IMG/VR virus record: IMGVR_UViG_2526164613_000013
Direction: 5' to 3' (one strand)
From: a virus
Taxonomy: Duplodnaviria; Heunggongvirae; Uroviricota; Caudoviricetes
DNA: 15,874 nt
The notes under the pieces were generated by a model. It ran no database searches, had not been told where the DNA came from, and saw only the letters and a program-made list of their open reading frames with translations. Below, piece by piece: positions 1-7,064 of the stretch. The first letter of the stretch is position 1. Each line of letters begins with the position of its first letter. Made by a program: the position numbers and the translations under genes.

Positions 1-1361
1 GAGCCCGTCAATGGCCATTCTTCCGGCTCCAATCCACTCAGCCCGTGACCAGGCTGATCGCGCCTGATAAAAATCAAAACGTGCCCGTGGCGGACGAATA
101 ATCCCCCGAAGAAGTGCCTCTTCCAGCCAGCAGGAAAACATCTGCGTGGCCAGCCGGGACGCAATAAATTTTCGCCGCCCCATAAAATAGCGCCACGACT
201 CATTGGCGGATGCGCGGGCACTTGAATAACTGACCTTCGAGTAATCACGGGACAACTGTTCGTAGGAAACGCCAAGACCGGCGGCGATATACCGCAGCAG
301 CGCCTGTTCAAGCGCCGAAAATCCATTGTCTGAATCCTGCGCGGTCTGAAGTTTCAGATCATCACCGGGGAAAAGGTGCGGAATTTTGACACCGCCCAGC
401 GTCACGCTATTCGTGTCATACCAGGTGGAGAACTTATCCAGAATATTAATAAGCGGATTATCCTTCTGCCCCTGCGGCGCACCGGCGATATATTCAAAGG
501 CCTTTTCGGTATCAAGGTCACTTTCAATCGTCGCTGCATACATCGCCTTCACTATGGCCGACTGAAGCTGTGTTGCCTGCAGGGAATCGAGCATCTTCAG
601 CCGTTCCATTACGCTGTAAAACTGATTGGCCCCACGGGTCTGCCCGTCCTCCACCGGCTCGAAAATATGCAGCATGGCCGGACGCCCGGTGGGAAGTTCA
701 CGCGGGATCCGTTCCCATCGTCCACTCCCGGAGCGAGGAAAATCATCCTCACAGATATGGTACGCAACGGCACGACCATATCGATCGACCTCCACACCGG
801 CCCGCAGAAAACGGTTCCCCATACCGTGTCCTGGCGTGTCCACCCGTTTCGGACTCACGGCTTTAAAACGCGTACGAAACAGTTGCGTGCTCTCCGTATC
901 CCAGACCGGCTGCACAAAGATTTCGCCGTTAAACGCATGAACGCCCACACCTTCACGAATAAATTCCGTAAACGTGCGTTTTCCTTCCACGTCGATCTCG
1001 CCAGACATCCCTTCTGCGTATTCTGACCAGGCCGCCTCACCTCATCGACAAAACTTTTTGCCGCGGTCTCCCGCATCCCCAGCCAGCGCCAGTTCGGACG
1101 GTAGCTGATCAGAAACATATGCCCGACAATATGATCCTTATGCAGGGCCACCGCATTGGCCGCTATCCCGTTATTGCGCACCAGATCATCTGCCCGGGCA
1201 TTCCCCAGACGCAACGCAGGCAGCAGGGCTGCATCGGCACTCTGCGCCGGTGGCAACCACTCCGCCATTTGCCCGCCAAATCCTGCACCGCCCCCGTTGT
1301 AGCTGAGACTCTCACGAAGCGGAACGCCGTTCACATCAATCAGGACAGGCGTTCGTTTCAT
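1..1361 (-). CDS. B: Portal protein (lambda gpB-like); 3' end runs off the window start; apparent 1-nt deletion in a G-run near 1037-1043 splits the reading frame (possible pseudogene)
   Basis: ORF 855..1361 starts MKRTPVLIDVNGVPLRESLSYNGGGAGFGGQ, matching the lambda portal N-terminus. My translation of a second minus frame from about 1040 to position 1 gives ...HAFNGEIFVQPVWD...IPRELP...HIFEPVEDGQTRGAN...AIVKAMYAATIES...ANESWRYFMGRRKF...GRMAIDGL, collinear with lambda gpB. The frame switch falls at gag-gtg-agg where V-E-A-A-W is expected. Confidence 0.9.
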
Positions 1362-1564
1362 AACCTCACTCCCAGCGGACGACGGCGACGCCGGGTTGTC
1401 CCCAGTACCGACTCCGCATCATTGATCGCCCGGTTAAGCTCATCCAGAGAAGCCGCCGTATATTCAATTCTGCGACCATCCTTCTGGACAGACACCACCC
1501 GTTTACCGGTTAATAAATCAAGGCGCGCCTGACGCAGCGCCTGCAGTTCAGCGACTGTAACCAT
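1358..1564 (-). CDS. W: Head-tail joining / head completion protein (lambda gpW-like)
   Basis: 68-aa ORF MVTVAELQALRQARLDLLTGKRVVSVQKDGRRIEYTAASL... resembles lambda W (…LMTGKRVATVQKDGRRVEF…). Sits between terminase and portal as in lambda, with its stop overlapping the portal start. Confidence 0.9.
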   Translation of the reverse strand: MVTVAELQALRQARLDLLTGKRVVSVQKDGRRIEYTAASLDELNRAINDAESVLGTTRRRRRPLGVRL

Positions 1565-3476
1565 TCACTCCTCCGGACAGCTTCGCTGCCAGTTCTTTCA
1601 GGGTTGGCCGGGTCGTCTCTTCTTCCCGGGATTTTGCCAGTACAGCCAGATCAAGCTGCCAGCGTTGCACGGACACACGTAATGCCGCGTAGGCATACAC
1701 CAGGCAGTCCAGCGCTTCGTTACGCCGCTTTTTGTTATCCCACAGCAGACGCATCTTTCCTTTTTCCCACTTCTCCACAAGCTCTTCCGCGACCAGTTGC
1801 TGCGCCTCTGTCTGCGAAAAAATCTCCGGATCATCAGGAAAACGGATGGCATACGACGTGGCTTCATCCGCAGGCGTGGGATCGGCTTTCATACGGGCAT
1901 AGAGAATTTCTTTTGCGGTGTCCGTCCCCACTTCACACAGATACACGCCCCGCTGATTGCGGGTTTTCGGCATGGTGATCACCGGCTTGCCATAGACAGA
2001 CGCGCCCTTTACCGGCAGCACCCGGAAAACACCGTGTTTTTTTGATCTCTGATAAACAATTTCACCATCGATCCCCCGGTGTCCCAGCAGACACGGGAAA
2101 TAGTCATTTCGGTGCCATCCGCATGGCGGTATTTTTTGTTGATCGCCGCATCCACACGTAACAGCGTCTCTTCCTCATCAGGACGCCCCATAATGATGAT
2201 TTTATCCACCAGAAAGGCTTCCTCTCCCGGAGCCCATCCCCAGACATACATCTCAAAACGGTTTCGCTGCGAGTCAATGCCCGCCGTCAGATAAACCACC
2301 CGGGCAGGCACCGCCGCCGTGTAACGCACCACCTTATCCATCAGTACCTGGTGATCGAGTTTTTCGCCCCACGGCCTCTTCCCAGGTCTCGCCCAGCGTG
2401 GTGTTCACAAAGGTTTTCAGGCCGTTGGGATCTTTCAGTGCATCCAGCCAGTCATAGACAATCTGTACCCAGGTGGTGAACGGACTGTACGCCGTCCAGA
2501 TATGGAACGTGATGGAGCGCGGCGGCGGAATTTCATCACCCCGGGCGCTGAAAAACGTCAGACCGTCACGGGTCCACATGCCCGTGTTTTCACAGATCCA
2601 CCGCCCGTTACTCTGGTCAAGCTCAGACTGATGGATCACACAGCCATGATGCTCACAAAGGTAGAAAACACTTTCTGGCTTATTCTTCTCCCACTTAAGA
2701 CCGAAAGGCGAGGCATCATCGCCAAATTTCAGATACTGCTCCTCCCCACAGTGCGGACAGGGCACATAAAAACGCATGAAGTGTGCCGACTCGTTAGCGG
2801 CTTTTTCGATCTGGCAGGTGCCTTTGATTTTAGGCGTCGAGCCGCGAATGGATTTTGGCCACACCGACCCCTCAATACGCTTATCCCCCAGCAGGGTTGG
2901 CGAGCCCTCTTTTTCGACATCCGGCTCGAACGAGGAAAGTTCGTCATAGCAGACCACGTCCACGGATTTTTCACGGTAGTTTTTGGCGGCAGCGCCGCCC
3001 AGGCACCAGAAACCGACGCCCGATGAAAAGCGTTTCAGCGTGAGAGTATTGTCACGATGTTTACGACCCAGCCATGGGGAAAGGTCTTTCAGGCATGGCA
3101 CGTTCCGAATCGTCGCCTCCACGTGAGACTTCATAAAATCTTCAGCGGCAGAATCCGTGGGCTGAAAAAGCAGACTGTTTCGGGATTTATGCTCAATAAA
3201 ATACCCGACCACCCCCAGCAACATCTTTGTATAGCCAACACGGGCAGATTTAATCAGGTTAACCGTGCGAACCTGGTCGTTACCCATACAGTTCATGATG
3301 GCGATCTGGAATGGCAGCGTTTTCCATTCTCCCTCACCATATGAAGATTCTTTAGGCAGAGAATAATTTTGATCAGCCCATTCAACTGCCGTCATTGGTA
3401 CAACCCTGACCAGAGGCTGCAGCGCAACCGAAACGGCAGCCATCATATTATTCAGTTGTTGCTCTGATATATTCAT
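1548..3476 (-). CDS. A: Terminase large subunit (lambda gpA-like), interrupted by two apparent single-base frameshifts (C-run 2073-2077 and C-run 2367-2370 on plus strand); possible pseudogene
   Basis: Three consecutive minus-strand ORFs (2334..3533, 2009..2341, 1548..2021) are collinear with lambda gpA: MNISEQQLNN...TAVEWADQNY...KSARVGYTKMLLGV...CPHCGEEQYLKFGD...HIWTAYSPFTTWVQIV...TLGETWE / ...YLTAGIDSQ...CWDTGG / ...QRSKKHGVFRVLPVKGASVYGKPV...LWDNKKRRNEALDC. Start taken at ATG 3474-3476 (MNISEQ). Frame junctions were located by hand translation. Confidence 0.92.
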
Positions 3477-3957
3477 CGAGTAAATCCGGTAATTTATCCC
3501 CTGCCCGCGCACACTGGTTTGCCCCCTTAGCAATAAGGGTTTTCAGATGGTCAAGATGGCACGGTGTTAAATCAGGAAACTGTCGCTGCATGGATAAAGG
3601 GATGGAATCAAGCGTACTGGATAACGCCATTGCCAGCTTACTGAGGGCAAAAATACAGAACCCGGTGTCAATAAGTTTTCCTTTTGACACCTCATTTTTT
3701 AGCTGCTGTGTAACAGCCTGTTCTGCTGTCAGTTCCCATCTGGCAATAAGCAATTTCTCCTCATAGTCGTCTTCGCTATCGCCATCAGGCACATCGTTTT
3801 TACTTCTCCTCAGATACGATATGTAAAAATCGCGCCAGGCATCCAGATCCAGTTGCCCTCGCTTATTCGATATCGGGGCACCCGGCAATTTCTGCAATCT
3901 GCGAAGCTGGCGATCGGTCAGACTTAAATGCCTGGCAACTTCAGTCTGCGTAGCCAC
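3448..3957 (-). CDS. nu1: Terminase small subunit (lambda Nu1-like), probable GTG start
   Basis: 169-aa ORF with an N-terminal HTH-like segment (EVARHLSLTDRQLRRLQ) and a C-terminus (TGFCIFALSKLA...LSMQRQFPDL...LPDLLDEYI) resembling lambda Nu1. Lies immediately downstream of cos and overlaps the terminase large subunit start, as in lambda. Confidence 0.8.
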   Translation of the reverse strand: MATQTEVARHLSLTDRQLRRLQKLPGAPISNKRGQLDLDAWRDFYISYLRRSKNDVPDGDSEDDYEEKLLIARWELTAEQAVTQQLKNEVSKGKLIDTGFCIFALSKLAMALSSTLDSIPLSMQRQFPDLTPCHLDHLKTLIAKGANQCARAGDKLPDLLDEYIRATTE

Positions 3958-4002
3958 TCCTCACCTCAAAAACTCTCACCTCACAATCACAACAAAACCG
4001 GT

Positions 4003-4101
4003 CATGTCCGGTTTACATGTCTGTTTTTTGTTCATGTCCGGTTCACAGAAGACCTGTTTTTATATTTTTCATATAGTTAACTTGAAGAGAAACCGGACAT
4101 G
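4003..4101. repeat. cosB-like region: three copies of an 11-bp motif CATGTCCGGTT (4003-4013, 4033-4043 direct; 4091-4101 inverted), candidate terminase small subunit binding sites (R-sites) with an AT-rich segment between them
   Basis: Exact 11-mer repeats seen directly in the sequence between cosN and the Nu1 start. This arrangement parallels lambda cosB (R3, I1, R2, R1). Confidence 0.6.
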
Positions 4102-4138
4102 GATCCCGGAAAATTTTCATAAATAGCGAAAACCCGCG

Positions 4139-4150
4139 AGGTCGCCGCCC
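4139..4150. other. cosN cohesive-end site (12-nt overhang GGGCGGCGACCT on the minus strand)
   Basis: Plus strand 4125-4150 reads agcgaaaacccgcgaggtcgccgccc, the reverse complement of the lambda left end GGGCGGCGACCTCGCGGGTTTTCGCT. The following ~45 nt toward Nu1 also match my recollection of the lambda left end. Confidence 0.85.
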
Positions 4151-4356
4151 CGTAACCGGTCGGATCGCCGGAAAGGACCCACGAAATGATAATAATTATC
4201 ATCTATATAAGGTTTATCACAACATGTGTGTACGCCATCAAACCACGAGAAATAATCAATTATGACGCAGGTATCGTATTAATTGATCTGCGTCAAATTA
4301 ACGTAAAAGCAACTTCAGATAATACAAATCAGCAACACTGAATATGGGGAAACATT

Positions 4357-4542
4357 ATGTCATCAAAGAACAGAACCCGCAGAACAACAACCCGCAACAT
4401 CCGATTTCCAAACCAGATGATTGAACAAATTAACATCGCTCTTGATCTGAAAGGTTCAGGAAACTTTTCAGCGTGGGTTATTGAAGCCTGCAGAAGAAGG
4501 CTGTCAACAGAGAGTTCGGGTATGAATTACATAATTAAGTAA
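4357..4542 (+). CDS. Small phage protein, DUF3950/YlcI-like (homolog of the lambda right-end ORF); sequence pattern suggests a ribbon-helix-helix-like DNA-binding fold
   Basis: 61-aa ORF MSSKNRTRRTTTRNIRFPNQMIEQINIALDLKGSGNFSAWVIEACRRRL.... GGGGA lies about 8 nt upstream of the ATG. Position next to cos and the upstream DNA match my recollection of the lambda right end; the only plus-strand gene in the window. Confidence 0.6.
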   Translation: MSSKNRTRRTTTRNIRFPNQMIEQINIALDLKGSGNFSAWVIEACRRRLSTESSGMNYIIK

Positions 4543-4678
4543 CATGGTGTTCACAGAACACGCAGTTACCGGACACATCAGTTTTCCATTCGCTCCCCGG
4601 CAGTACAGGCTTCCCCTCTGACGGGATAGCCTGAAAAAATAACACAGAAAATTATTTGTTATAATTAATATAACTTAC

Positions 4679-4816
4679 TCAAAAAAAAAGCGACGAGAAA
4701 ATCAGCATCAACGAACAATAAGCGCCAATACGTGATAACAAATGGCAGCCATATTTATCTGCAGTATAAGCAATGGACAGGATAACCACACCAGAAACCG
4801 TCAGCATAAAATCCAT
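4679..4816 (-). CDS. Candidate 45-aa hydrophobic peptide (MDFMLTVSGVVILSIAYTADKYGCHLLSRIGAYCSLMLIFSSLFF) in an AT-rich island
   Basis: ATG start with GGGGAAG 5 nt upstream; one or two predicted membrane helices. Below the size cutoff of the ORF track. No homolog recognised. Confidence 0.2.
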   Translation of the reverse strand: MDFMLTVSGVVILSIAYTADKYGCHLLSRIGAYCSLMLIFSSLFF

Positions 4817-5172
4817 TTGAACTTCCCCGGACAAAATCGACTCATCTAAAGATTTACAGCTCTTTTTATTATCAATATGTTAAAAGTAAAATAAACAGAT
4901 GTTCAATAACACGAATACAAAAACGTGCTGAAATTCAATGAATCCATTTCTGTGTCATCAATTAATAGTGATAAACATCCGGCTTCTTCCACCATCGCAC
5001 CGGACAGGCGACTATGAGGGGACAACGCCGCGCTCCGTTAACGCGGTAAACCCCGGTGTGTATCGTTTTTGATTATCCCCGCACACTCGCGCAGAAGAGT
5101 CTCCCTGTCGGGCTGCGGTCTCTGTTAATGCAGGAATACGGCGACAATACCGCGCATGGATAATAAGGTCGC

Positions 5173-5397
5173 TCAACACACTGGCTGTAATGCAGCGGAT
5201 ACCATGCGGCATTTAGCGGCATTCATCGTACACTCCACGGTTAGCTCTTCATTCGTGGCATTCACCTGAAAGGTCCGGGAGTGTAATTGCGTACATTTAC
5301 CACTGAACGAACCTTCAACAAGAACACGACCACGCTGCAAAATACGGAACGGAATTGTTCCCTGAAAAGGTTCTACGGTTACCCGTAATTTCTTCAT
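5173..5397 (-). CDS. Hypothetical 74-aa protein, translationally coupled to Rz
   Basis: Its ATG overlaps the Rz stop (ATGA) and is preceded by GGAGGA 4-5 nt upstream. Protein [37 protein letters not shown]... has no recognisable family. Confidence 0.4.
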
Positions 5398-5888
5398 GTA
5401 TCCTCCGGATAATAAAAAGCCAGCTTAGTGCACTGAGTGCGGATATATTCCTGCGCCCCTTCCAGCTGCTTCTGCATTGTCATCAACCGTTCTCTGAGGA
5501 TGAAATAATCCCGTTCAGCGGTGTCTGCCAGTCGGGGGCCGGTTGCATTATCCACGCTGGAGGTGCCGGTGGCTTCACGCACGGTACCGGGGCAGGTGGC
5601 GTTGACCCGCAGGCGCTTACGACCAGCGGCAACATCAGCGCGCAGAGTTTCAATTTCAGCTCTCGCATCGGCTAATTCCTTCGTGTATCTGGCATCAAGC
5701 GCAGCGACATCTCGCTGGCGCTGCTGCATGTCAGTAATAGTGGCATTCGCCAGTTTCAGCTCACTGACTTTTTTATCGCGCTGCGCTTTGTAGGTGATGG
5801 CGTTATCGCGGTAATGATTCAGCCCCAGACTAAGCACACCACAGGCTACCAGCAGGACAATAATCACCACACACAGAACACGGTTCAT
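5394..5888 (-). CDS. Rz: Rz i-spanin (inner membrane spanin subunit)
   Basis: [40 protein letters not shown]...[29 protein letters not shown]...[18 protein letters not shown] is near-identical to lambda Rz. Start taken at ATG 5886-5888; the ORF-track upstream extension is not used. Confidence 0.9.
5483..5668 (-). CDS. Rz1: Rz1 o-spanin lipoprotein, embedded in the +1 frame of Rz
   Basis: [22 protein letters not shown]...[32 protein letters not shown] matches lambda Rz1 (lipobox plus proline-rich mature region) and lies entirely inside Rz. Confidence 0.85.
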
Positions 5889-5889
5889 A

Positions 5890-5976
5890 TCACCACCAAC
5901 GGATTGCCCAGACCAGAACAGCAATGGCCACAATACGAATGGCAAATGCCATTGCCCGAATAAGTTCAGCACTCAT
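5890..5976 (-). CDS. Candidate 28-aa hydrophobic peptide ([28 protein letters not shown]); its stop abuts the Rz start (TGA-t-ATG)
   Basis: ATG start, single predicted TM helix. Paralogous to the next peptide upstream through a shared RA(L/M)AFAI(K/R) core. No obvious Shine-Dalgarno sequence. Confidence 0.3.
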
Positions 5977-5987
5977 CTTTTTAAAGT

Positions 5988-6110
5988 TCACGATTTCAGC
6001 GCAATGACCAGTTTTGCCAGCCCATACAGCATCGGAGACACAGCAATACCAACAGCCACCCACTTAATAGCAAAAGCCAGCGCTCTGCTGATGTCATCAG
6101 TCACTGTCAC
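5988..6110 (-). CDS. Candidate ~40-aa hydrophobic peptide (…TVTDDISRALAFAIKWVAVGIAVSPMLYGLAKLVIALKS), probable GTG start overlapping the stop of the upstream mini-ORF
   Basis: C-terminal portion of track ORF 5988..6260, whose N-terminal part overlaps the neighbouring mini-ORFs and is unlikely to be translated. Paralogous to the 28-aa peptide at 5890..5976. Confidence 0.3.
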   Translation of the reverse strand: MTVTDDISRALAFAIKWVAVGIAVSPMLYGLAKLVIALKS

Positions 6111-6238
6111 CCCAGCAGCCCCGACGAAGACAACATCACCCAGGCGAGGGACAGAAAAAGAGCAACCAGCATTAGTGAAAATGAAATACCGACAATCACA
6201 CACAGGACCTTTGCCGGCGTTATGAGTTTGTCTGACAT
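6107..6238 (-). CDS. Candidate 43-aa membrane peptide (MSDKLITPAKVLCVIVGISFSLMLVALFLSLAWVMLSSSGLLG)
   Basis: ATG start with AAGGGG 5 nt upstream; the start is 2 nt after the stop of the preceding mini-ORF. About 28-residue hydrophobic core. Below the ORF-track cutoff. Confidence 0.35.
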   Translation of the reverse strand: MSDKLITPAKVLCVIVGISFSLMLVALFLSLAWVMLSSSGLLG

Positions 6239-6240
6239 AG

Positions 6241-6336
6241 CTACCCCTTAATTGCCACAATTAACTGGGATACTACCCATAAAAAAGGGATGCTCCAGAC
6301 CAGCAAAAATTTCCAGTTTGGTAATTGACTAATCAT
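6241..6336 (-). CDS. Candidate 31-aa membrane peptide (MISQLPNWKFLLVWSIPFLWVVSQLIVAIKG)
   Basis: ATG start with GGGAG 9 nt upstream. It is the C-terminal part of track ORF 6241..6453, whose N-terminal part overlaps the hairpin terminator and is unlikely to be coding. Confidence 0.3.
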   Translation of the reverse strand: MISQLPNWKFLLVWSIPFLWVVSQLIVAIKG

Positions 6337-6402
6337 GAGTCGCAACTCCCTAATCAGTTTGCTAAAATCAATCAAGGCAGCCTCCCATAGCTTACTGCCA
6401 TA

Positions 6403-6447
6403 AAAACAAAACCCCGCTTGCTGCCAACAAACGGGGTTTTTACTTTT
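6403..6447. terminator. Bidirectional intrinsic-terminator-like hairpin (stem aaaaccccg / cggggtttt, 15-nt loop) with T-tracts on both strands
   Basis: Perfect 9-bp inverted repeat at 6408-6416 / 6432-6440, followed by a U-run on each strand. Lies between the endolysin stop and the first mini-ORF. Confidence 0.6.
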
Positions 6448-6530
6448 ATTCACTTACGTTTCGCCAGTTCGCAGGATTTCATGTTATCCGCCCGCGTGGC
6501 CATGCCTTATTTTTCAGCAAAATATTCTGC

Positions 6531-7064
6531 TTATCTGTCGATACCCCAGCACGCCAGCGCGCTCTCCTGGTCACGACGGGATACCTGACCGTAGCAGTTG
6601 TTTGAACGAATACGGCAATCTCTGCCACCGTCCTTAATCCACCAGCGAATCGCCTCACATGCTCCCCTGCGATCACCAGCATTAATTCGTCTGTAAAACG
6701 TCGACGGGAAACACTTACCGGGACCAATGTTGTACGGACAGAATGACGCGATCCCCGCTTTCTGGGGTTCGGTCAATGGCACTTTGATGTTTTTCTCCAC
6801 CCATGCCAGCGCCTTATCACGCTCAATGGCGTTAACCTGGTCGCATTTCTCCTTCGACAACTTCATGCCCGGGACGACAGGTTTACCATCCACCAGAATG
6901 GCACCGCGACAGATGGTCCAGATACCCGCGCCATCACGGTATGCCGTGGTGTGGTTACCTTCCTTTTCATCCAGAAACTGGTCGAGAATGTCAGGCGCAG
7001 GCGCACCAGCGGCAATCAGCGCCAGAACGGCAGCCGACAGGCCGTATTTGATTTTGGTGTTCAT
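6531..7064 (-). CDS. Endolysin, lysozyme-type with an N-terminal signal-anchor-release (SAR) domain (phage 21 R / RrrD-like)
   Basis: 177-aa ORF with a weakly hydrophobic Ala/Gly-rich N-terminus (GLSAAVLALIAAGAPAP) followed by a lysozyme catalytic region (E...D...T: LDEKEGNHTTAYRDGAGIWTICRG). Paired with a pinholin, as expected for SAR endolysins. Confidence 0.85.
   Translation of the reverse strand: MNTKIKYGLSAAVLALIAAGAPAPDILDQFLDEKEGNHTTAYRDGAGIWTICRGAILVDGKPVVPGMKLSKEKCDQVNAIERDKALAWVEKNIKVPLTEPQKAGIASFCPYNIGPGKCFPSTFYRRINAGDRRGACEAIRWWIKDGGRDCRIRSNNCYGQVSRRDQESALACWGIDR

Follow-up and report, generated by a model that had tools for sequence, protein, structure and literature searches.

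Most apparent frameshifts in a prophage contig of Escherichia coli DEC5B are probably errors of the draft assembly

Most of the apparent frameshifts in the window, by which is meant the whole stretch of prophage DNA analysed here (15,874 bp), are probably draft errors, since the genes are intact both in independent assemblies and in a closed genome of this strain. The original prediction listed six gene lesions and offered a choice between a defective prophage and homopolymer errors. Error is very probably the right reading for four of the six (two in the terminase gene terL and one each in the CPBP and DUF968 genes), which would be assembly artefacts with four alleles private to the draft, whereas the lesions of the portal gene and of rusA are real. 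The four indels are absent from the independent assemblies, and we infer a sequencing or consensus error in the draft as their cause.

The window is the entire contig AIFR01000027.1 of the 2012 draft assembly GCA_000249515.2, from E. coli O55:H7 strain DEC5B. Deposited proteins EHV31311, EHV31310 and EHV31307, labelled '[Escherichia coli DEC5B]' on this contig, are exact matches of the window's truncated products. The drafts of the DEC collection are presumably 454-type data, an assumption not counted as evidence. A later closed genome of DEC5B, CP038389, was produced with PacBio RSII data and Illumina/Pilon polishing; its locus at 2.12 Mb (copy 1) is the window's counterpart, and a sister prophage lies at 4.24 Mb (copy 2). 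DEC5B harbours two prophages with near-identical head modules, whose shared head genes are 99.9% identical across 6.7 kb or more. Illumina polishing could in principle move alleles between the copies of this two-copy repeat in the closed genome. Alignment of the window with the 2.12 Mb locus yields 12 substitutions and 8 indels, five of the indels lying in genes and three in non-coding DNA, and the closed genome lacks the window's indels at 2072, 2367, 3966, 8591, 12079, 13240 and 14723. In allele surveys, the terL, CPBP and DUF968 indel alleles were absent from every paralogous place in CP038389. Eight further, independent contigs were selected by the window's rare rusA allele.

The broken reading frames are consecutive pieces of single Pfam profiles for the portal protein, gpA terminase, DUF968, Rce1-like/CPBP and RusA families. 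The left end of the window comprises the following features:

1..822, minus strand: C-terminal part of the portal gene in the post-shift frame, running off the contig end; called as a 274-aa gene in the draft
855..1361, minus strand: N-terminal portal fragment of 168 aa, ending at a premature stop
877..892: six-SNP patch, six positions with copy-2 (common) alleles and not the copy-1 patch
1035..1038: portal −1 lesion, CCTCCACC to CCTCACC
1358..1564, minus strand: gpW, head-tail joining protein, intact
1548..3476, minus strand: terL, lambda gpA type, broken in the draft into three frames (380, 110 and 157 aa)
2073..2077: terL C run, C5 where relatives have C6, one base missing; probable draft error
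2367..2370: terL C run, C4 where relatives have C3, one extra base; probable draft error
3448..3957, minus strand: nu1, terminase small subunit, frame intact, with substitutions private to the draft at 3517 and 3561
3966..3967: deletion of CG (2 bp), non-coding, 10-11 nt upstream of the GTG start of nu1; probable draft error

The three pieces of the terminase gene correspond to consecutive segments of the GpA_ATPase and GpA_nuclease profiles (3-55, 70-165 and 171-287), and Pfam searches with the fragments return PF05876 (6e-57) and PF20454 with the profile order kept. When both indels are repaired, terL encodes 642 aa identical to WP_171881607.1 of closed DEC5B. The repaired reading frame is a single polypeptide of about 640 aa with an N-terminal GpA_ATPase followed by GpA_nuclease, as in gpA-type large subunits. 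The missing base in the C run at 2073-2077 and the extra one at 2367-2370 were both placed correctly by the original prediction. The C5 allele is absent from both copies in closed DEC5B; it occurs exactly in 7 of 1,570 records, from scattered strains and none of them DEC5B, and PGAP marks terL as 'frameshifted' in both of the C5 genomes that were opened (2 of the 7). The C4 allele at 2367-2370 is likewise absent from the closed genome, and none of 1,709 records matches it exactly over the full length. Compensating +1/-1 indels with a tolerated shifted segment between them are ruled out by a stop at 2334-2336, reached after about 11 codons.

The gpW product matches the Pfam gpW family and is identical to the closed-genome protein. 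One of the two draft-private substitutions in nu1 results in R133C. A third paralogous prophage was considered as the source of the substitutions at 3517 and 3561 and rejected, none of 1,218 records carrying both; these two changes look like draft errors as well. The CG at 3966/3967 is kept in both closed-genome copies, in RM12579 and in phage PhiR12_1.

In the portal gene, alignment to close relatives shows one C missing at 1037/1038; read on the coding strand this base is a G, in agreement with the missing G predicted near 1037-1043. The N-terminal and C-terminal fragments match Phage_portal_2 profile positions 2-80 and 149-354, respectively, which places the protein in the lambda portal family (PF05136), its C-terminus lying outside the window. 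This exact 168-aa N-terminal product is found on two contigs only, both from the DEC5B draft. A 61-mer spanning the lesion, however, is matched exactly by one of 611 records, and that record is CP038389 itself, at position 4238690 in copy 2, where PGAP labels the portal gene 'frameshifted'; the copy-1 portal at 2.12 Mb is intact in the closed genome and encodes 531 aa. The −1 change is, on this comparison, a real mutation of DEC5B whose place is in the sister prophage, and matching to the closed genome assigns the window's portal alleles to copy 2. The six-SNP patch at 877..892 marks a segment for which the sister prophage or mixed reads would be the source; the copy-1 version of the patch is mostly synonymous, with T158S as its sole amino-acid change. 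Since the portal frameshift sits in a sister prophage that shares 99.9%-identical head genes, the draft contig is probably chimeric at its head end.

Outside the head module the window carries both kinds of change, apparent and genuine, in the following features:

8592..8597: T run, non-coding, downstream of the esterase gene, T6 where T7 is expected; probable draft error
8599..10471, minus strand: SASA/DUF6645 carbohydrate esterase, split into ORFs of 439 aa and 235 aa by a 22-bp tandem duplication
12080..12084: A run beside a TrmB-like pseudogene, A5 where A6 is expected; probable draft error
12572..13389, minus strand: CPBP (Rce1-like) intramembrane protease, Pfam Rce1-like, split in the draft
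13241..13247: CPBP A run, A7 where relatives have A8; probable draft error
13903..14227, minus strand: rusA, with a 47-bp deletion between 14141 and 14142 flanked by a CCGCT direct repeat
14240..15288, minus strand: DUF968, draft ORFs of 214 aa and 181 aa matching Pfam DUF968 profile positions 1-41 and 30-171
14724..14725: DUF968 lesion, CC where CCC is expected; probable draft error

The CPBP gene is intact (272 aa) in closed DEC5B and in independent contigs, with A8 in the closed genome and in all eight of the independent contigs. The site lies within the poly-A/T stretch at 13232-13280 to which the frameshift had been assigned. Its A7 allele is found exactly in 1 of 568 records, that of strain 2013C-4465, in which the gene is marked 'frameshifted'. 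DUF968 is similarly intact, at 349 aa, both in the closed genome and in contigs L017 and L018. The predicted frameshift is present in the draft, but it lies at 14724-14725 as a change from CCC to CC and not in the A6/T6 run at 14707-14712; CCC is read in the closed genome and in all five independent contigs covering the site, and the CC allele has no exact match among 1,952 records.

Two changes in this part of the prophage are true lesions. The frame break predicted in rusA exists, but it is the 47-bp deletion rather than a one-base homopolymer change, and the same deletion is present in closed DEC5B. Its 88-aa product occurs on 11 contigs, the nine places shown being nine samples, two of them metagenomes; carriers were counted by exact-product look-up, a 62-nt BLAST junction query having joined the two halves in intact genomes. 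The 22-bp duplication of the esterase gene consists of perfect copies at 9170-9213. Closed DEC5B has it too, with the gene annotated by PGAP as 'frameshifted', as does OU349844.1, and among 997 complete-genome records DEC5B alone gives a full match. Genuine decay occurs in DEC5B, with lesions in the copy-2 portal, rusA and the esterase gene. The esterase duplication was overlooked by the original prediction, as were the non-coding indels at 3966/3967, 8592-8597 and 12080-12084. At the last of these, A6 is read in closed DEC5B, in OU349844.1 and in all seven other independent contigs covering the site; OU349844.1 is otherwise identical to the window across 3.5 kb. Across the surveys of 568 to 1,952 E. 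coli records, the alleles of the four gene indels are either missing or sporadic.

The overall distribution of indels also argues for error. One-base indels account for 7 of the 20 differences between draft and closed genome versus 0 of 28 between two high-quality genomes, closed DEC5B and RM12579, which over the same 15.9 kb differ by 25 substitutions, 3 long indels and no one-base indels. The excess of indels over substitutions is significant (Fisher's exact p = 0.001; pooling with contig 22 of the draft lowers this to 6e-6). When the eight contigs with the rusA allele are aligned to the copy-1-specific part of the window, the only indels are at 12084, 13247 and 14725, three positions at which these contigs agree with the closed genome. 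A second contig of the same draft, AIFR01000022 (contig 22), differs from closed copy 2 by 8 one-base indels and 2 substitutions at other sites; it covers the same terL without the window's terL indels but with others of its own. The original prediction took the survival of longer homopolymers as mildly favouring real mutations. This argument does not hold, as only 4 of about 104 runs of at least 5 bases in the window are hit, 2 of these in non-coding DNA, which is the pattern expected of random consensus errors. Several of the affected runs are very short (CC to C, CCC to CC and C3 to C4), and six of the AIFR01000022 indels are insertions outside homopolymers. From the very short runs and these insertions, the errors would not be purely of the classical homopolymer type.

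The window is best explained as a small repeat-bounded contig whose consensus would have acquired random one-base indels, mostly under-called short runs, together with a single 2-bp deletion and some base errors. The apparent frameshifts come from four coding indels (two in terL, one each in CPBP and DUF968), and three further indels are non-coding. At the left, ~4 kb (nu1, terL, W and portal) is part of the two-prophage repeat of at least 6.7 kb, where the contig is probably chimeric and alleles of the sister prophage, the portal −1 included, were presumably taken into the consensus. The true lesions in the rest of the prophage are the microhomology deletion of 47 bp in rusA and the 22-bp tandem duplication in the esterase gene.

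It is very unlikely that every frameshift was real in the 2012 culture, a decaying cryptic prophage from which the later-closed stock differs. The true prophage lesions of DEC5B (copy-2 portal, 47 bp in rusA, 22 bp in the esterase) lend this some plausibility, as does the appearance of terL C5 and CPBP A7 as annotated pseudogenes in a few other complete genomes. It would nevertheless need seven private indels in 15.9 kb, all missing from the strain's own closed genome, with the three copy-1-specific ones missing as well from the independent rusA-allele contigs and from OU349844.1, a carrier of the esterase duplication. It would also have to accommodate a second draft contig with a different set of eight indels in the same genes, the damage to non-coding DNA, and the lack of any one-base indel across the region between high-quality genomes.

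Slippage at the terL C6 and CPBP A8 runs, acting as reversible off-switches of which the draft caught an off-state subpopulation, is most improbable. Recurrence of C5 in 7 scattered genomes and of A7 in one is what such hot spots might leave, and packaging by the prophage or the CPBP gene would then be switched off in subpopulations, the few other genomes with these alleles having likewise caught off-states. The allele frequencies are very low, however (0.4% for C5 and 0.2% for A7), in the three such genomes examined the genes are annotated simply as 'frameshifted', one of these genomes having a frameshifted portal too, and at 6 to 8 bases the runs are short for phase variation. The C3-to-C4, CC, CG and non-coding indels would be left unexplained.

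That the closed genome is at fault, polishing having overwritten true terL frameshifts with reads of the intact twin, is exceedingly unlikely. Head modules 99.9% identical over at least 6.7 kb do make short-read mapping ambiguous, but the portal −1 and the six-SNP patch, lying at least ~1 kb away from the terL indels, were not homogenised, and the C4 allele is found in 0 of 1,709 records. Draft contig 22 has indels of its own over the same terL and not those of the window, and at the CPBP, DUF968 and A5 sites, which are not part of the repeat, independent contigs refute the idea. Programmed ribosomal frameshifting can be dismissed, the shifted alleles being private or nearly so (0-7 of 568-1,952 records) and the homologues single ORFs.

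Draft error as the preferred reading has precedent in early bacterial drafts with collapsed prophage repeats. As in those, one-base indels exceed substitutions, fall mostly in short runs of coding and non-coding DNA, are gone from the polished closed genome and differ between contigs over the same repeat. Unlike in those, some of the runs hit are only 2-3 bases long, and non-homopolymer insertions occur in contig 22; thin or mixed coverage of the repeat, rather than pure homopolymer mis-calling, may be the cause. Once the draft errors are removed, the head module shows no functional difference from that of phage 21 and lambda. The order nu1-terL-W-portal is the same, and Phage_Nu1, GpA_ATPase, GpA_nuclease, gpW and Phage_portal_2 are all recognised by Pfam. 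The stretch from portal to terL is 94.8-94.9% identical in nucleotides to phage 21, the match ending at 3402 and the nu1 region having diverged, and phages PhiR12_1 to PhiR12_5 are 96.3% identical over the whole 4 kb.

The late genes run in the order Q, tRNA genes (Ile2-CAT, Arg-TCG and Arg-TCT), SASA-family esterase, class II holin and lysozyme. Stx-converting lambdoid phages have the late layout Q, tRNA genes, stx, nanS-p-type esterase and holin. The DEC5B prophage keeps this order but has no stx separating the tRNA genes from the esterase, and genes for an additional CPBP protein and an AraC-type HTH protein come after Q. Like the cryptic lambdoid prophages Rac, Qin and DLP12, the prophages of DEC5B have true inactivating lesions in some of their genes. 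Classical cryptic prophages have large deletions. The prophage at 2.12 Mb differs from such elements in that its packaging genes are intact and its late region complete in the closed genome. The original prediction that the prophage, if its frameshifts were real, could not package DNA is not supported at this locus, where closed DEC5B has portal, terL and nu1 intact and no inactivating lesion was found in an essential packaging or head gene. Packaging does not require rusA or the esterase, and a packaging defect of the prophage is therefore not shown.

For users of these data, indel errors occur about once per 1-2 kb within prophage repeats, in AIFR01000027.1 as well as in one or more further contigs of GCA_000249515.2, and EHV31307, EHV31310, EHV31311 and other deposited proteins would be artefactual fragments. 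Calling pseudogenes or a "cryptic prophage" on the basis of GCA_000249515.2 is accordingly unreliable, and CP038389 is preferable. The result is mainly one of quality control, and the real biology is ordinary, with two prophages of near-identical head module and small repeat-mediated lesions in two accessory genes. Between the two prophages of DEC5B, the intact portal of copy 1 might complement the frameshifted portal of copy 2 in trans.

The window is a complete contig of 15,874 bp, AIFR01000027.1 in draft assembly GCA_000249515.2, as shown by exact matches of its truncated products to proteins named "[Escherichia coli DEC5B]" there. A closed genome of this strain, CP038389, followed later, from PacBio RSII data with Illumina/Pilon polishing (PMC9413875). 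The window matches the prophage at 2.12 Mb in the closed chromosome at 99.9%, with 12 substitutions and eight indels. The original prediction offered two readings of six gene lesions, real mutation or homopolymer error, and on comparison of these sequences each appears to hold for a different subset. Four of the six, both in terL (terminase large subunit) and those in CPBP and DUF968, are best read as errors of the draft assembly, and so are three non-coding indels; real mutation holds for rusA and, in a sister prophage, for portal. All genes of the window lie on the minus strand, arranged as follows.

From the left, minus strand: head and packaging genes, portal (cut by the contig end), gpW, terL, nu1 (terminase small subunit)
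Next after nu1, minus strand: lysis cassette, Rz-like lysis protein, lysozyme, 329-aa DUF1327 ORF, class II holin
7107-8096, minus strand: the 329-aa ORF with a DUF1327 domain, intact, between the holin and lysozyme genes
8599-10471, minus strand: SASA/DUF6645 (carbohydrate) esterase gene, followed by three tRNA genes
10472-13922: late region, with Q, CPBP protease, AraC-type HTH, tRNA genes, esterase and holin
10961-11210: tRNA genes Ile2 (CAT), Arg (TCG) and Arg (TCT)
11989-12285, minus strand: TrmB-like regulator gene
13903-14227, minus strand: rusA
Right-hand end, minus strand: AraC-type HTH gene, CPBP protease gene, Q, rusA, DUF968

Within this layout, the CAT tRNA is called Met by ARAGORN and Ile by PGAP, the annotation of the closed genomes. 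At 7107-8096 the PGAP annotation of the closed O55:H7 genomes is limited to a partial 'YdfR family' pseudogene of 336 nt, the remainder being left unannotated. A 10-bp unit (GCGGCATTTA) at 5205 varies in copy number, with two units more in the comparison genome RM12579 and the same number in closed DEC5B as in the window.

Lesions were located by aligning the window to RM12579, the related phage PhiR12_1 and closed DEC5B. The one-base events originally described in portal, terL and CPBP are seen in these alignments: a single C is absent from portal at 1037/1038, terL has C5 at 2073-2077 and C4 at 2367-2370 (C6 and C3 in relatives), and CPBP has A7 at 13241-13247 (A8 in relatives). DUF968 likewise carries a one-base lesion, but at 14724-14725, where CCC is reduced to CC; it had been assigned wrongly to the A6/T6 run at 14707-14712. 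The gene rusA is indeed interrupted, though not by a single base; the alignment shows a 47-bp deletion at 14141/14142 flanked by a CCGCT direct repeat. Each set of fragments comprises consecutive parts of one Pfam profile. Three non-coding indels had been missed, namely a CG deletion at 3966/3967, 10-11 nt ahead of the start codon of nu1, T7 to T6 at 8592-8597, and A6 to A5 at 12080-12084.

At the 2.12-Mb locus of closed DEC5B, portal, terL, nu1, CPBP and DUF968 are intact in the PGAP annotation, and once both terL indels are corrected, the window has a 642-aa ORF whose product does not differ from the closed TerL at any residue. The proposal that the prophage is unable to package finds no support at this locus, given its intact portal, terL and nu1. 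Only the esterase, rusA and TrmB-like genes are annotated as frameshifted there, and all three lesions are common to the window. Between closed DEC5B and RM12579 this 15.9-kb stretch shows 25 substitutions, three long indels mediated by repeats and no one-base indels, whereas seven of the 20 differences between the draft and its own closed genome are one-base indels (Fisher's exact test, p = 0.001; 6e-6 with a second draft contig, AIFR01000022, pooled). The window indels fall in coding and non-coding DNA alike. Intact longer runs had been taken to favor real mutations, an argument that fails: of about 104 runs of at least 5 bases, no more than four are affected, two of them non-coding. Two substitutions in nu1, at 3517 and 3561, are absent from all 1,218 E. 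coli records; one of them changes Nu1 R133 to C, and both are probably also base errors of the draft.

The second draft contig, covering the sister prophage, has eight one-base indels and two substitutions relative to the closed genome, at sites different from those of the window. On the reverse complement of AIFR01000022.1, six non-homopolymer one-base insertions, three within 50 nt, lie at 1438-2992 and split terL and nu1; such a pattern is suggestive of sparse or low-quality reads, not of classical homopolymer error.

Alleles were surveyed by counting exact matches in complete E. coli genomes. The terL C4 allele was found in none of 1,709 such records and the DUF968 CC allele in none of 1,952. 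The terL C5 allele occurs in 7 of 1,570 records from scattered strains, none of them DEC5B, and CPBP A7 in 1 of 568, the different strain 2013C-4465; three carrier genomes were inspected, and in each the annotation marks the gene as frameshifted.

Eleven contigs encode the 88-aa product of the rusA deletion (nine locations were listed, from nine samples that include two metagenomes), and therefore this microhomology deletion is a real, inherited allele, not private to DEC5B. Against the part of the window specific to the 2.12-Mb prophage, eight independent contigs with this allele show indels only at 12084, 13247 and 14725, where they agree with the closed genome. Over 3.5 kb the independent record OU349844.1 departs from the window at the A5/A6 site alone. 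This 5.4-Mb 'chromosome' record (GCA_910664835.1) is a contig scaffold with 100-N gaps that places prophage fragments beside unrelated genes, and its gene order is therefore not to be trusted.

The esterase gene is split by a perfect 22-bp tandem duplication (GCAGCAGCCTCTCCGGCTGCCG x2) at 9170-9213. This frameshifting lesion is real, because closed DEC5B and OU349844.1 have the same duplication as the window; DEC5B is the sole full match among 997 complete E. coli genome records. The TrmB-like gene bears a frameshift annotation in RM12579 as well as in closed DEC5B and is therefore an older pseudogene common to this prophage lineage.

The portal lesion is real, and the contig ties it to the wrong prophage. 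A 61-mer spanning it matches exactly 1 of 611 records, closed DEC5B at 4,238,690, within a second prophage whose portal PGAP annotates as frameshifted. Head genes are common to the 2.12-Mb and 4.24-Mb prophages over at least 6.7 kb (317-7033 of the former locus, L004, and 1-6716 of the latter, L009); the differences there are one isolated site beyond the window, the portal -1, and a mostly synonymous six-SNP patch in portal (window 877-892). At the portal indel and this patch the window has the alleles of the 4.24-Mb prophage, and its right-hand 11.8 kb is that of the 2.12-Mb prophage; inside the repeat, therefore, the draft contig is a chimera or an assembly of mixed reads. Such near-identical head modules suggest recent recombination between the two prophages, and the portal defect of one could be complemented in trans by the intact gene of the other.

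The first 4 kb of the window has 94.8-96.3% identity with phage 21 and PhiR12 phages and 98-99.8% with E. coli O55:H7 prophages, its head module being an ordinary member of the phage 21/lambda type. The late region is laid out as in Stx phages, in the order Q, tRNA genes, esterase and holin of the Stx-converting arrangement; unlike those phages, it has no stx in the interval from the tRNA genes to the esterase gene. The draft errors are an artefact of a known kind, with no new biology, and protein fragments from the draft are unfit for inference of pseudogenes or of prophage integrity.
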